Virus record (IMG/VR): IMGVR_UViG_2703718833_000007
Span: 6,191-70,190 of that record
DNA: 64,000 bases
DNA from: a virus
Lineage: Duplodnaviria; Heunggongvirae; Uroviricota; Caudoviricetes
Strand: one strand, 5' to 3'
Both the position numbers and the translations under genes were made by a program. Each line of letters starts with the position of its first letter. Within the stretch, counting starts at the first letter, position 1. Of this stretch, positions 51,431 through 61,966 are shown piece by piece. Under the pieces are notes generated by a model, which was given only the letters and a program-made list of their open reading frames with translations, was not told the origin of the DNA and did no database searches.

Positions 51431-52666
51431 CTACGATAACCGCGCATTCAACATGGCTATCTGTTCGTCGTTCATGTCATCAATCCACATACCGTAAATT
51501 TCATACACCATCTGCGCAGTTTCATGCCCCATTTGGCTGGCTATAAATGCCGGGTTCGCTCCTGCCGTCAACAGCCAGCAGGCAAAAGTATGCCGCGTAT
51601 GGTACGGATTACGGCGGCGAATACCAGCACGTTTTACTGCTGCATTCCACCTTGCCCCCAAACTGCTTACCGAGTAATAAGGTTTTTGTTTTCCGTTACA
51701 CACCCTGGGCATGAAAACAAAATGCAGTTTTTGCTTTTCGGTTCTGCCGTACTCCCGATGATAAAAGGTGATTTCGCTTTTGCGATGATGCCCGGTCAGT
51801 TTGTATTGCTCCTTCAGTGCTTCAAGAGCAGGCTGCAGTAGTGTTACTGTTCGGATCCCGGCATTTGTTTTTGGGGGACCGAACATATCAAGTATCGTCA
51901 GGTTTCTTCTGACATTCACTATTCCCTTTTCGAGATCCACATCCTCCCACGCCAGAGCTGCCAGTTCCCCGTGACGAAGTCCTGAGTAAACGGCAAATTT
52001 CCACAAGTTCTGGCTCTGTCCTTTTTCACTTTCCATTAATGCATTGAATTCTGTTTTAGATAACGGATCAGGCTTTATTCTGTTTCGCTGTAATTTTTTT
52101 ACTCCTTCAAATGGTTTGGTTGATATAAATCCCGACTGATACGCAAAACGCAACAGCGAACAGAGCAGGGCGATATAGTTATCAACTGTGCGCACGGTTC
52201 TTCCTTTTTTGTTGGATCTTGGATTATCCAGGTAAAGCGTTTCTCCATGCAGCAGTTCATTCCGGTAGTTTAAGATATCGCTATAACGAATATGTGATAT
52301 CGGGGTACTTTCACAAATTATTATTCTGAGTGTTTTTAATTGTGATTTTGTTTTCTTCATTGTGTATGTTGTTAACTCTGTCTCTTTAATTTTTGTCCAG
52401 ATATCACAAAGCTCTCCGAACGTTTTTATGACTCTCGTTGTCACCATTTTTGCCCCAGTGCTGGACTGGGGAAAACGTCTTAAATACTCAAATTCACCGG
52501 AGTTTATTTCATGAACTATCAGCGCTCTTAAATTTCCGGCCTTTTTAATATTACTGTTTGTAATCTCCCAGCCTTTTAATGTTTCCCGACATCGTTTTCC
52601 TCGAAACATGAACCAGATGCGAATGTATCTACCTCTAATCTCGACACCTGTTGGTAATTTAGACAT
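51431..52666 (-). CDS. intR: Rac prophage integrase (tyrosine recombinase)
   Basis: Track ORF 411 aa; C-terminal catalytic R...HxxR...Y region (NPYHTRHTFA). Confidence 0.9.
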   Translation of the reverse strand: MSKLPTGVEIRGRYIRIWFMFRGKRCRETLKGWEITNSNIKKAGNLRALIVHEINSGEFEYLRRFPQSSTGAKMVTTRVIKTFGELCDIWTKIKETELTTYTMKKTKSQLKTLRIIICESTPISHIRYSDILNYRNELLHGETLYLDNPRSNKKGRTVRTVDNYIALLCSLLRFAYQSGFISTKPFEGVKKLQRNRIKPDPLSKTEFNALMESEKGQSQNLWKFAVYSGLRHGELAALAWEDVDLEKGIVNVRRNLTILDMFGPPKTNAGIRTVTLLQPALEALKEQYKLTGHHRKSEITFYHREYGRTEKQKLHFVFMPRVCNGKQKPYYSVSSLGARWNAAVKRAGIRRRNPYHTRHTFACWLLTAGANPAFIASQMGHETAQMVYEIYGMWIDDMNDEQIAMLNARLS

Positions 52667-52667
52667 A

Positions 52668-52883
52668 TCATGAGTCTTTGATAAACTGATTTATCTTTGG
52701 ATAGTTGTACCAGATAATCCCTCGTTTGCTGTCTGGCTTACCTAAAGGAGATACTCGTTTGAAGTGGAAGCCCTCCACCCAACAGTTCTGGCGGTATGCT
52801 TCAATTTGTCTGGCCCCCAGACCAGTGCGAAGCATCAGGCCGTATTCAACCATCCACTCTTCATTAAAGATTACTTGTGCCAT
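52668..52883 (-). CDS. xisR: Rac prophage excisionase
   Basis: Track ORF 52668-52907 trimmed to [15 protein letters not shown]. Confidence 0.8.
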
Positions 52884-52961
52884 CGCATCACCTCTGGCAG
52901 GCGCCAATGTTAGACTGAAATTGACGCCCGATGTTGATTATTAATAATAAGCTATGAAGTT

Positions 52962-53171
52962 TTAATTTGAATACAATGCAATTCTCGAGGACTGAAGTTT
53001 CTCGCAATTAAAATTTATCAGTTTTACTTTCTGCTCTCTGGAAACGCCTGCTTCTTTTTTACCTGAGAGCATTTTTTCGCATTCTGATTTCGTTAGTTTA
53101 GATTTTGAATATCTTGTCCAGTTAGTAGGAGTGCCACCTTCCTTTTCAATAGTGGCGGTAATTTTATACAT
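52962..53171 (-). CDS. rcbA: Rac prophage protein RcbA (YdaC)
   Basis: Track ORF 52962-53243 trimmed to MYKITATIEKEGG. Confidence 0.75.
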   Translation of the reverse strand: MYKITATIEKEGGTPTNWTRYSKSKLTKSECEKMLSGKKEAGVSREQKVKLINFNCEKLQSSRIALYSN

Positions 53172-53358
53172 GAACACCTCCATTATTATTTCCAGTGGTT
53201 CGTTTATTCCATCTTTCGAGTGCTTCTTTTTCACCTCCACCATAACCGGTTCGGGATTCGCATCCGTTACACTTCGCTCGGTAATATCCTGAAATGGCTT
53301 TCACCGTTACTGATGGACAACCACAAAATGGACATGGTTTAACATTGTCATATCTCAT
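53164..53358 (-). CDS. ralR: Restriction-alleviation protein / type I TA toxin RalR (Lar)
   Basis: Track ORF 53164-53397 trimmed to MRYDNVKPCPFCGC; matches remembered Lar. Confidence 0.8.
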   Translation of the reverse strand: MRYDNVKPCPFCGCPSVTVKAISGYYRAKCNGCESRTGYGGGEKEALERWNKRTTGNNNGGVHV

Positions 53359-53414
53359 AATTTTTCTCATAAAAAATATTTCAAGTTGGCGGTGCATTAC
53401 ACCGCCAGGCTGAA

Positions 53415-59594: not shown

Positions 59595-59673
59595 AAGTTC
59601 AATGATATTCGCTCTTGAATGTACTGTCAGTTCTGTTATAGCATGTACTCAAAGTTCACATTGTGAGGATGAT

Positions 59674-59928
59674 ATGAACCAGAAAACACTTGAAGATGTA
59701 ATCAAAACTGTTCGCGTTTCTGTTGTGGCCGACGTTTGTGGTGTCAGCCAAAGAGCAATCTACAAATGGATGGATAACGGAAAATTGCCTCGCACAGAAT
59801 ATACCGGCGAAACAAATTACGCTGAAAAAATCGCTCATGCATCAAACGGATTATTTTCTGCCGATGCAATTTTAACTATTGGCAGAAATAAAACTACTAC
59901 GAAAAAGCTGATGGGAGTTGATTCATGA
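59674..59928 (+). CDS. ydaS: Cro-like HTH protein YdaS
   Basis: Track ORF 59602-59928 trimmed to MNQKTLEDVIK; HTH VCGVSQRAIYKWMDNGKLP. Confidence 0.75.
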   Translation: MNQKTLEDVIKTVRVSVVADVCGVSQRAIYKWMDNGKLPRTEYTGETNYAEKIAHASNGLFSADAILTIGRNKTTTKKLMGVDS

Positions 59929-60347
59929 AAATCAAGCATGAGCACATCGAATCAGTGTTGTTAGCCCTGGCAGCCGAAAAAGGGCAGGCGTGGGTCGCTA
60001 ACGCAATTACTGAAGAATATCTGCGCCAGGGGGGCGGCGAATTGCCCCTGGTACCAGGCAAGGACTGGAACAATCAGCAGAATATCTATCATCGTTGGTT
60101 GAAAGGTGAAACGAATGCGCAAAGGGAAAAAATTCAGAAACTGATCCCTGCGGTTCTGGCAATTCTTCCTCGCGAGCTGCGTCACCGACTCTGCATCTTC
60201 GATACCCTGGAACGCCGTGCATTACTGGCGGCACAGGATGCACTGAGTACGGCAATTGATGCGCATGATGATGCAGTCCAGGCCGTTTACCGTAAAGCAC
60301 ATTTCAGCGGCGGCGGTTCTCCTAGCGATTCTGTCGTAGTGCATTGA
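59925..60347 (+). CDS. ydaT: Rac prophage protein YdaT
   Basis: Track ORF 140 aa. Confidence 0.8.
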   Translation: MKIKHEHIESVLLALAAEKGQAWVANAITEEYLRQGGGELPLVPGKDWNNQQNIYHRWLKGETNAQREKIQKLIPAVLAILPRELRHRLCIFDTLERRALLAAQDALSTAIDAHDDAVQAVYRKAHFSGGGSPSDSVVVH

Positions 60348-60424
60348 TTGAAATTAATCGTACCGAACTGTTTTGTTCGGTATCAGTTAAATGTAACGCT
60401 GCGAGCGTTACAAGGTGAAAACAA

Positions 60425-61213
60425 ATGGCTTCAAACTGGATAAAGCTCGAAGTTATTACGCCGGATAAGCCGGAAATATTCAGGCTTGCTGAGATTCTGA
60501 ATATTGATCCAGATGCCGCATTAGGGAAAGTCATTCGCTTCTGGGCATGGGCGGATCAACAAATGATAGACGGTAACGCAGAGTGTAACGCTCGCGGCGT
60601 TACAAAAAGTGCAATAGATCGCATCACTTTTATGGCTGGTTTTGCTGATGCGTTAATTCAGGTTGGATGGCTGGTCGAAACTAATGGTGTGTTGTCGCTT
60701 CCTAACTTTGAGCGCCATAACGGGAAAAGCTCTAAAAAACGGGCGGTTACAAACGAGAGAGTAACAAAAATACGAGAACTGAAACGAAAAGGTAACGCTG
60801 CCAGCGTTACAAAAACGGATCAAAAAGCGTTACCAGAGGAAGAGAAAGAGGAAGATATAAATACTTATCTCCCCCTAAATCCCCCTCGCCAAAAACGAGC
60901 GTCTAAAAAATTCGAACCGGAGGCTATCGAGCTGCCTGACTGGTTGCCGGAAACACTCTGGCATGAGTGGGTTCAGTTCAGGCAGGCATTGCGAAAACCG
61001 ATTCGAACGGAGCAGGGCGCTAACGGGGCGATACGGGAGCTGGAAAAATTCCGCCAGCAGGGTTTTTCACCTGAGCAGGTGATTCGACACAGCATCGCCA
61101 ATGAATACCAGGGCTTGTTCGCGCCAAAAGGTGTTCGACCTGAGACGTTACTCCGACAGGTTAACACCGTCTCGTTACCGGATAGTGCGATCCCGCCAGG
61201 CTTCAGGGGGTAA
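60425..61213 (+). CDS. ydaU: Replication protein YdaU (O-like)
   Basis: Track ORF 262 aa. Confidence 0.8.
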   Translation: MASNWIKLEVITPDKPEIFRLAEILNIDPDAALGKVIRFWAWADQQMIDGNAECNARGVTKSAIDRITFMAGFADALIQVGWLVETNGVLSLPNFERHNGKSSKKRAVTNERVTKIRELKRKGNAASVTKTDQKALPEEEKEEDINTYLPLNPPRQKRASKKFEPEAIELPDWLPETLWHEWVQFRQALRKPIRTEQGANGAIRELEKFRQQGFSPEQVIRHSIANEYQGLFAPKGVRPETLLRQVNTVSLPDSAIPPGFRG

Positions 61214-61219
61214 CTGACC

Positions 61220-61966
61220 ATGAAAAATATTGCGGCAGGCGGCATTCTTGAACGTATCCGCAGACTGGCCCCGCCACATGTAACCGCCCCATTCAAAACG
61301 GTAGCGGAGTGGCGCGAGTGGCAACTTTCCGAAGGCCAGAAACGTTGTGAGGAGATCAACCGTCAGAATCGTCAGTTGCGGGTGGAAAAAATTCTGAATC
61401 GCTCTGGCATCCAGCCATTGCACCGCAAATGCTCGTTTGCGAATTACCAGGTGCAGAACGACGGTCAGCGATACGCGTTGAACCAGGCGAAATCTATCGC
61501 TGATGAACTGATGACCGGGTGTACAAATTTTGCGTTCAGCGGAAAACCTGGTACCGGAAAAAACCATCTGGCGGCGGCTATCGGGAATCGCCTGCTGAAA
61601 GATGGCCAGACAGTGATTGTGGTTACCGTGGCTGATGTCATGAGTGCTCTACACGCCAGCTATGACGACGGGCAATCAGGCGAAAAATTTTTGCGGGAAC
61701 TGTGCCAAGTGGATCTGCTGGTTCTTGATGAAATTGGCATTCAGCGCGAGACAAAAAACGAGCAGGTGGTGCTGCACCAGATTGTTGATCGCCGGACAGC
61801 GTCGATGCGCAGCGTGGGGATGCTGACAAACCTGAACTATGAGGCGATGAAAACATTGCTCGGCGAGCGGATTATGGATCGCATGACCATGAACGGCGGA
61901 CGCTGGGTGAATTTTAACTGGGAGAGCTGGCGTCCGAATGTCGTCCTGCCAGGAATTGCGAAGTGA
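61220..61966 (+). CDS. ydaV: DnaC-like helicase loader YdaV
   Basis: Track ORF 248 aa; Walker [10 protein letters not shown], Walker B LLVLDEIG. Confidence 0.85.

Follow-up and report, generated by a model that had tools for sequence, protein, structure and literature searches.

Is a prophage arm that carries the genes of K-12 Rac, in the order of K-12 Rac, also governed by the switch of K-12 Rac? The question is raised by positions 51431-61966 of a stretch of 64,000 nucleotides (nt), here called the window, which comes from the IMG/VR virus record IMGVR_UViG_2703718833_000007. The original prediction, made from the sequence alone, recognized there a Rac-like arm with intact recET, RalR and KilR and a RacR-YdaS/YdaT module, and its limits are exact, 51431 being the intR stop and 61966 the ydaV stop. 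With a probability of about 0.9 we consider the arm to be the early (left) half of a lambdoid prophage of the Rac family in ttcA, a mosaic in which the leftward operon is nearly that of K-12 Rac and an HK022-like switch has been swapped in.

The window is E. coli chromosome. The arm is matched in 5051 of the 5426 complete E. coli genomes, in 1198 of them with a coverage of 80% or more, and strain ET82 matches it best, with 99.9% identity. The prophage arm as such is already known and the exact mosaic is annotated in hundreds of genomes; the original prediction correctly recognized what is an ordinary, well-annotated prophage arm, and mislabelled one of its modules. The only item here that might be new is an apparently undescribed leader RNA at the start of the leftward transcript.

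The immunity cassette

The part of the window from 48001 to 64000 was compared with the MG1655 assembly by blastn. Three collinear blocks were found, 49743-59050 (99.8% identity), 59919-60345 (92.5%) and 60840-62438 (92.5%), and there was no similarity between them (59051-59918 and 60346-60839) nor beyond 62438. The first block runs from ttcA and intR to ydaG and differs from K-12 by 16 substitutions and a single 1-nt indel, which is intergenic (59045). It contains the integration site, ttcA at 50444-51379 followed by intR at 51431-52666, with a flank that matches MG1655; the upstream neighbours zntB, FnrS, dbpA and ttcA are as in K-12. The gene order in the RefSeq annotation of ET82 and MG1655 is ttcA, intR, xisR, rcbA, ralR, recT, recE, racC, ydaE, kilR, sieB and ydaF, continued by the repressor, the gene in the cro position, ydaT, a replication gene and ydaV. 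From intR to ydaF the gene content and order claimed for the arm are those of K-12 Rac.

The claim of a RacR-YdaS/YdaT module stands in part. YdaT is a true ortholog (92.5% at the DNA level, Pfam YdaT_toxin) and the gene positions match, but the repressor and the Cro belong to an HK022-like cassette. The switch region consists of the following features:

59056..59099, minus strand, OL/PL with two operators ATGTAC-N5-GTWC, 59059-59073 (plus) and 59085-99 (minus) (pattern and promoter scan)
59175..59594, minus strand, prophage repressor of 139 amino acids (aa) with an HTH_3 N-terminal domain and a short helical C-terminus, not RacR (Pfam and protein comparison)
59602..59657, unstranded, OR with two operators ATGTAC-N5-GTTC, 59619-59633 and 59643-59657 (pattern scan)
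59674..59928, plus strand, Cro analog of 84 aa, not YdaS (likeness to HK022 Cro; start as annotated in ET82 and LC-1302-2020)

Residues 3-99 of HK022 CI align with the repressor at 46% identity over 99 aa (E 9e-32), and the alignment ends at residue 99. With RacR it shares just a match of 33 residues in the helix-turn-helix (HTH) domain, 12 of them identical (E 1e-4, pairwise). The protein in the cro position is 62% identical to HK022 Cro over 73 aa (E 1e-34); no significant protein similarity to YdaS was found in a pairwise comparison. The S24 (LexA-like) peptidase domain is absent from the 139-aa repressor, in which Pfam shows HTH domains only.

The OL/PL of the window aligns nearly base for base with that of HK022. 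A leftward PL is predicted with its -35 (TTTACA) at 59084-59079 and its -10 (CATTAT) at 59061-59056, overlapping the OL operators, and its +1 is predicted at 59049 by homology with HK022 PL, where the +1 is fixed by the numbering of the putL transcript (PMC9378689). At OR the operators overlap a leftward promoter-like site from 59630 to 59602, a candidate PRM; a weaker rightward TTGAAT-16-TATAGC, read by eye, is a candidate PR. The pattern ATGTAC-N5-GTWC occurs 4 times in the window against 0.17 expected, a statistic which is optimistic because the four sites retrieved are those on which the pattern had been modelled. All four lie inside the swapped cassette, in pairs on sigma-70-like promoters. 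K-12 Rac carries TAGGC-N-GCCTA operators at the two equivalent places. Operators, promoters, repressor and cro all differ from K-12, and therefore the whole immunity cassette has been exchanged; as read from the sequence, the exchange spans OL/PL, repressor, OR and cro, and is that of a classical lambdoid immunity cassette.

The exchange is widespread. Among the complete E. coli genomes with at least 80% coverage 618 have this cassette and 552 have the K-12 cassette, a split which fits the report that racR and ydaS are part of a variable region of Rac (PMC5700373). The whole mosaic is present at this coverage in the 618 genomes and, at 99.9%, in three records from phage collections. Phage Tritos has the same cassette at 97.3% identity, and in three-way comparisons the left breakpoint is where the PL transcript starts and the right one is the YdaT-box.

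The leader behind PL

Immediately behind the predicted +1 lies an element which is conserved on its own:

58890..59049, minus strand, leader of the PL transcript, about 160 nt (conservation, fold and covariation)

A search with the immunity region gave thousands of genomes that match 58896-59057 only, at 86-89% identity and unannotated. In 93 distinct copies from IMG/VR conservation is near-total over about 58890-59049 and drops sharply on both sides, where genes and cassettes differ. The copies are 159-185 nt long and have indels of 1-20 nt. A four-tier hairpin occupies 58985-59041, with the apical loop CAAUACUUCGAGUUA at 59004-59018. It is followed by an invariant tail, UAAGUAGCCAGCCCGAGGCGUAUGAACAUGACGGC, with a Shine-Dalgarno sequence GAGG and an AUG at 58957-58955, by a variable spacer, and at the 3' side by a block, GUUCCGCCACCCGGCGUUAAGGGGA, which holds the Shine-Dalgarno sequence of ydaG. 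In the window the AUG opens an 18-codon reading frame that ends at 58901, within the ribosome-binding region of ydaG; the AUG is conserved, and in copies of the majority variant it shares the frame of a ydfA-like gene. A reading of the leader as coding sequence was rejected, since most copies have stops in all frames, no frame is open in all of them, and the length varies.

Homologs were sought in species-representative genomes with a core of 18 of 19 nt and confirmed with nhmmer. They were found in Pectobacterium, Serratia, Superficieibacter, Symbiopectobacterium, Arsenophonus and Phlomobacter, and phage pPE4 has a copy at 76%. The four-tier hairpin is the unconstrained minimum free energy fold in all 7 lineages. 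The P2 stems are wholly different, CCAC/GUGG in E. coli, CGCAU/AUGCG in Pectobacterium, GGCAGAA/UUCUGCC in Serratia, GGCAAU/AUUGCC in Symbiopectobacterium and GGCAAA/UUUGCC in Arsenophonus. Invariant across the lineages are the 15-nt apical loop, CAAUACyNCGAGUUA, and the 35-nt tail, yUAAGUAGCCAGCCyGAGGCrUAUGAACAUGAmGGC, both of them even between E. coli and Arsenophonus. The frames started by the AUG have 4 to about 27 codons and only M-T/K-A in common.

RNAalifold on a plain MAFFT alignment gave just the invariant 3-base-pair (bp) stem, with the variable stems out of register, and therefore a structure-guided alignment was built. It holds stems, loop and tail only, with the junctions removed and N padding, in 30 distinct rows. 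In this alignment 84.9% of the cells pair, compared with 67.1% after shuffling and 25-40% with a slid partner, and in 16 of the 22 pairs both sides have changed. None of 500 shuffles attains its covariation score, which is 0.385 (shuffles 0.123), and slid partners give no more than 0.08; these figures overstate somewhat, as the alignment was fitted to the structure and there are only about 7 independent lineages. Across the lineages the z-scores of folding lie between -0.8, the value for E. coli, and -3.7; in E. coli the hairpin has -0.76 and the whole leader -1.24, the latter not significant.

The minus orientation rests on the direction of the promoter, on the GAGG-N9-AUG kept in the tail, on the agreement of the 5' limit of conservation with the predicted +1 (59049), and on synteny; counts of G-U against A-C pairs do not decide the strand. 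The order cro, divergent repressor, element, early-left genes recurs in pPE4, Tritos, Serratia and Arsenophonus; in Serratia it leads on to a RecE homolog, in Arsenophonus to boxA/boxB and an N-like gene. Two further pairings were considered. A long-range helix of 9 bp (58903-11 with 59019-27) was dropped, being broken in the majority variant, and a pseudoknot between the loop and the Shine-Dalgarno sequence (CUUCG with CGAGG) is not claimed, as just one of the two variable loop positions fits the required pairing.

Rfam 15 has no family at gathering score in the leader, and at E<=10 nothing over 58890-59049, only chance hits elsewhere. A full-text literature search with sequence strings of the element returned only unrelated primers; the put-like RNAs of King et al. 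2011 may include it. Lambda, HK022 and K-12 Qin lack it, and Qin keeps the 3' block alone, without the hairpin. It is present in about 3800 of the 5426 complete E. coli genomes (about 70%), but the 50,697 phage records contain it in no more than 12-14 cases, and this scarcity in deposited phage genomes would explain why it was overlooked. No second, putR-like copy was found in the 64-kb window, where the element occurs once.

We tentatively propose, on the strength of conservation and fold, that the leader could be an undescribed class of cis-acting phage RNA which gates kil, recET or N at the start of PL. The gating may act through RNA polymerase or Rho-dependent termination, or through translation of the first short frame.

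Some of the homologs have features of their own. Symbiopectobacterium purcellii has up to 8 leader loci, and in Arsenophonus there are pairs 1.9-2.7 kb apart on one strand. The copies in these two genera each lie between a repressor gene and a boxA/boxB-N module, and reflect many decaying lambdoid prophages. The phage pPE4 (Actinobacillus phage vB_Apl-pPE4, PP818812) has a Rac-like early region, in which ydaT, 91.5% identical to that of E. coli at the DNA level, is accompanied by kil, recE and the leader. A Pasteurellaceae host (A. pleuropneumoniae) is unexpected for such a phage, and host or sample may have been misassigned.

The leftward operon, the replication module and the cargo

The genes served by PL and their neighbours are, from the prophage boundary inwards:

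51330..51430, unstranded, attL, the left prophage boundary, inside the 5' end of ttcA (coding sequence 50444-51379, minus strand), transferred from the MG1655 annotation
51431..52666, minus strand, intR, tyrosine integrase, 411 aa, intact, N101Y relative to K-12 (annotation and translation)
52668..52883, minus strand, xisR, excisionase, 71 aa, as K-12 (annotation and translation)
52962..53171, minus strand, rcbA, 69 aa, as K-12 (annotation and translation)
52987..53165, plus strand, RalA antitoxin small RNA, antisense to rcbA and the 3' end of ralR (Rfam RF02694)
53164..53358, minus strand, ralR, type I toxin (DNase), 64 aa, intact, S42G (annotation and translation)
53415..54224, minus strand, recT, 269 aa, intact, A10T (annotation and translation)
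54217..56817, minus strand, recE (exonuclease VIII), 866 aa, intact, D455A and I614V (translation against K-12)
56919..57194, minus strand, racC, 91 aa, as K-12 (translation)
57269..57439, minus strand, ydaE, 56 aa, as K-12 (translation)
57439..57660, minus strand, kilR, FtsZ inhibitor, 73 aa, intact, F51C (translation)
57836..57933, minus strand, kilS small RNA, transferred by offset from MG1655 b4833 (locus 9406-9503)
58102..58590, plus strand, sieB, superinfection exclusion, 162 aa, as K-12 (annotation and translation)
58587..58742, minus strand, ydaF (DUF1391), 51 aa, as K-12 (translation)
58753..58887, minus strand, ydaG, inactivated by W30* through a C to T change at 58799 (base comparison and translation)

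The position of attL follows from the MG1655 annotation of the cryptic prophage Rac (1411899..) with a constant offset, the window position being the MG1655 locus position plus 48430; attR lies beyond the window. The early-left order kilR-ydaE-racC-recE-recT-ralR-rcbA is all present, and the proteins are 98.6-100% identical to those of K-12. Gene-by-gene translation against K-12 bears out the full length of RecE (866 aa) and RecT (269 aa); RecE includes its C-terminal nuclease domain, and the end of recE overlaps the beginning of recT, as it does in K-12. In none of the genes named in the original prediction is there a frameshift, a stop or a deletion relative to the functional alleles. Its statement that all reading frames are full length is correct for every gene that it named, but ydaG has the nonsense codon W30*. 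This gene is the sole broken one in the K-12-like block, and it is unannotated in the near-identical ET82 and LC-1302-2020.

The antisense RNA RalA, which the original prediction had left to be located near ralR, is found there. It scores 225.1 bits with RF02694 (gathering score 170) over model positions 1-179 of 179, has zero substitutions relative to K-12, and corresponds in position to MG1655 b4714. Both marks of the RalR/RalA type I toxin-antitoxin pair are present, an intact RalR reading frame of 64 aa and an antisense small RNA adjoining ralR. For the K-12 allele, Guo et al. in 2014 reportedly described the toxicity of the RalR DNase and its Hfq-dependent repression by RalA. The kilS RNA had no Rfam match in the scan of the window; there is no substitution relative to K-12 between those at 57702 and 58799, and kilS is unchanged. 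Upstream of ynaL/dbpA, as in K-12, lies the FnrS small RNA (48560-48677, Rfam RF01796, 134.8 bits), an ordinary chromosomal feature.

To the right of the cassette lie ydaT and the replication module:

59918..59935, plus strand, YdaT-box TTGATTCATGAAAATCAA, overlapping the ydaT start codon (sequence match)
59925..60347, plus strand, ydaT, CII analog, 140 aa, 92.5% DNA identity to K-12 (blastn, Pfam)
60393-60411, 60585-60603 and 60792-60810, unstranded, three palindromes GTAACGC-N5-GCGTTAC (3 found against 0.16 expected)
60425..61213, plus strand, lambda-O-like replication initiator, 262 aa, in the ydaU position (phrog_2509, E 5e-88)
61220..61966, plus strand, ydaV, DnaC/IstB-like helicase loader, 248 aa (domain and PHROG-type matches, blastn)

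The YdaT-box is conserved in the window, K-12 and Tritos, and matches the K-12 site ATGATTCATGAAAATCAA, which is known from footprinting, as well as the CP-933P consensus, TTGATT-N6-AATCAA (PMC11879457). The C-terminal 124 aa of the initiator are 81% identical to YdaU and the first 138 aa are unrelated. All three palindromes lie within the swapped segment 60346-60839, in or just before the N-terminal half of the initiator gene, and K-12 ydaU holds five AGATGTTCAA repeats at the equivalent place. By analogy with lambda O we infer that the palindromes are candidate origin sites bound by the N-terminal domain of the initiator, and that each N-terminal domain would travel with its own sites. The palindrome copies are perfect and about 200 bp apart, unlike the tightly packed iterons of lambda or K-12 ydaU.

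The region behind ydaV differs from K-12, as had been claimed; similarity stops at 62438, which is the site of an internal deletion in K-12. The genes found there are:

61989..62750, plus strand, DUF1627 gene, full length, of which K-12 keeps just the 5' part as ydaW
62751..63095, plus strand, DUF977 (Ren-like) gene without its C-terminus, a pseudogene in the annotation of 19KM1766N and LC-1302-2020
63197..64000, plus strand, 5' part of an Mrr-nuclease/NACHT NTPase gene (Mrr-type nuclease domain and NACHT P-loop)

The last gene is, by its domains, a candidate bacterial NLR-like defence gene, although PADLOC 2.0 has no specific system or model for the NACHT protein. Its reading frame has an A7 run (about 63975-63981) where the intact 752-aa allele has A8, and this leads to a stop at 63998-64000. 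The split is common to the window and strain 19KM1766N, whereas LC-1302-2020 has a single intact gene of 752 aa; genuine decay, phase variation and an error of sequencing are all conceivable causes. The slot behind DUF977 acts as a hotspot for cargo. In ET82, which is 99.6% identical as far as 63083, the slot (17987-21060 of the ET82 locus) instead holds genes for a TetR regulator, for an adenosine deaminase (PADLOC CARF_ADA-like, E 3e-36), for an ITPase-like NTP pyrophosphatase and for a ThsA-like SIR2 protein. These genes may be a defence operon. Record ON470614 has yet other cargo in the same slot.

Alternative readings, a possible switch and known systems

It should be noted what weighs against a functional mosaic prophage arm. 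Operators, promoters, +1 and origin palindromes are predicted. The window stops at 64000, so that any late and structural genes would lie outside view, and LC-1302-2020, the nearest relative to share the cargo, is ridden with insertion sequences and lacks most of the structural genes. There is some decay, ydaG being broken and the downstream NACHT gene frameshifted. KilR F51C, RalR S42G and RecE I614V, which lies in the nuclease domain, are changes in proteins whose intactness is a claim from sequence.

That the region is Rac of the K-12 type throughout, RacR and YdaS/YdaT included, so that results with K-12 RacR would transfer to it, is hardly credible. The genes do keep their order and positions, ydaT is an ortholog that retains its YdaT-box, and a small HTH repressor stands divergent from cro as in K-12; but there is no DNA similarity over 59051-59918, the match to RacR covers 33 residues and YdaS has none, the operators are different, the clear homologs are the CI and Cro of HK022, and the genomes fall into two sets by cassette. 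Far more weight has the view, which we still hold unlikely, that the arm is an inert remnant, intact through youth or hitch-hiking, with a switch locked by the lack of a cleavage domain, unexpressed, and useless to host and phage. It is in keeping with K-12 Rac, which is 99.8% identical, being cryptic and silent unless derepressed (PMC5700373, PMC5917428), with the ydaG nonsense codon, the truncated DUF977 and the frameshifted NACHT gene, and with the loss of structural genes in LC-1302-2020. On the other hand, in about 7.6 kb of coding sequence the 16 substitutions have left 11 of 12 genes free of stops and frameshifts, and the K-12 switch is functional, as zygotic induction and the essentiality of racR tell (PMC5917428). 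The record ON470614, which may be a predicted prophage, is a full-length Rac-like genome with this cassette and lysis, terminase, head and tail genes, and phage Tritos holds the same immunity cassette.

A further alternative concerns the 160-nt stretch, which would not be a functional RNA but a DNA recombination linker between mosaic modules, or a gene for a small protein. We find this rather improbable, though the stretch does sit precisely at a mosaic breakpoint in the three-way comparisons, its near-invariance within E. coli can also be explained by recent spread, the folding energy in E. coli is unremarkable and the G-U against A-C counts leave the strand undecided. Some annotators call reading frames over it, there is a match to phrog_19140, and the AUG of the majority variant is in frame with the ydfA-like gene. 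However, the stem sequences of the seven lineages differ entirely while their pairing is kept, with double changes and a covariation score well above the controls; the invariance of the 15-nt loop and the 35-nt tail from E. coli to Arsenophonus is not predicted by a recombination linker; and the indels and the want of a frame open in all copies speak against a protein. The 5' boundary of conservation at the predicted +1 and the synteny of repressor, element and early-left genes in Serratia, Arsenophonus, pPE4 and Tritos also favour a leader RNA.

A likely mechanism can be drawn by analogy with lambda, HK022 and K-12 Rac. RacR, YdaS and YdaT were described by Jobling as analogs of CI, Cro and CII (PMC5917428), and both this analogy and the toxicity of derepression are in the literature (PMC5917428, PMC5700373, PMC11879457). 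The 139-aa repressor would bind the four ATGTAC-N5-GTWC operators and silence both PL (kilR, recET, ralR, xis/int) and PR (cro, ydaT, the O-like initiator, ydaV). On its loss Cro, the CII-like YdaT and the replication genes would be expressed rightward, and leftward the structured leader, KilR, RecET, RalR, Xis and Int. KilR would then block FtsZ, and RalA, made from the plus strand, would independently restrain the RalR DNase as a type I antitoxin; sieB, RalA and kilS would be on transcripts of their own. The lack of a LexA-like cleavage domain argues against direct SOS induction, and induction probably does not go through RecA-stimulated self-cleavage. The leader would most likely act in cis, on elongation or termination or on translation of the first frame, and we have no preference between these.

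Rac, RecET, RalR/RalA and KilR are textbook, and the prophage arm itself is of little import. What follows from the exchange is that the K-12 RacR results (essentiality, operators, cross-talk with restriction-modification C proteins) should not be carried over to about half of the Rac-bearing strains, those with the HK022-like cassette, and that such strains may be immune to phages of HK022 immunity. The leader RNA, if functional, would offer a new handle on how toxic early-left genes such as kil and nucleases are silenced and switched in lambdoid prophages.

With K-12 Rac (b1345-b1375) the window has the ttcA site, RalR/RalA, RecET, KilR, kilS and SieB in common, with 99.8% identity from intR to ydaG, and ydaT, ydaV and the C-terminal domain of the initiator are 92.5% alike. 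The immunity cassette and the N-terminal domain of the initiator with its repeats are unrelated, and ydaG is broken in the window. K-12 has a deletion behind ydaW, where the window has the full-length DUF1627 gene, the truncated DUF977 gene and the NACHT cargo. In Tritos (OV696610) the left operon is Qin-like (ydfA-C, DicF, dicB), and where the window has ydaT there is a gene of the Rha family. The records vB_EcoS-666R9/673R7/613R10 (ON4706xx) have 59051-61213 at 99.9% in a Rac-like genome with lysis and virion genes, and other cargo behind DUF977 than the window.

The immunity region of HK022 is a near relative: Cro is 62% and the HTH domain of CI 46% identical, the latter with a nearly identical recognition-helix stretch (TPKA[VI]SKWFNGE), and the OL/PL DNA is collinear, with the same ATGTAC..GTAC operators and promoter spacing. 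However, HK022 CI has 235 aa with a C-terminal domain for cleavage and dimerisation, which the window repressor of 139 aa is without; the window has YdaT instead of CII and no Nun, and its PL transcript opens with a different RNA, not putL. In HK022 putL directly follows the homologous PL and is an antiterminator RNA which modifies the polymerase (PMC9378689). The leader resembles putL in lying within about 10 nt of the +1 (its hairpin begins about 9 nt past the +1 predicted from HK022 PL), in being about 60-100 nt long and structured, and in being conserved independently of the downstream genes. It is unlike putL in having no sequence similarity to it and in having one long hairpin with a single-stranded tail that carries the Shine-Dalgarno sequence and AUG, where putL has two stem-loops. 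In Arsenophonus the leader coexists with boxA/boxB and an N-like gene, and so it is not a simple substitute for N/nut. The put RNA makes RNA polymerase resistant to terminators via the zinc-binding domain of beta', and it is the only known processive antiterminator that is independent of proteins; a functional leader would add to it, at the position of put, another RNA of a different structure.

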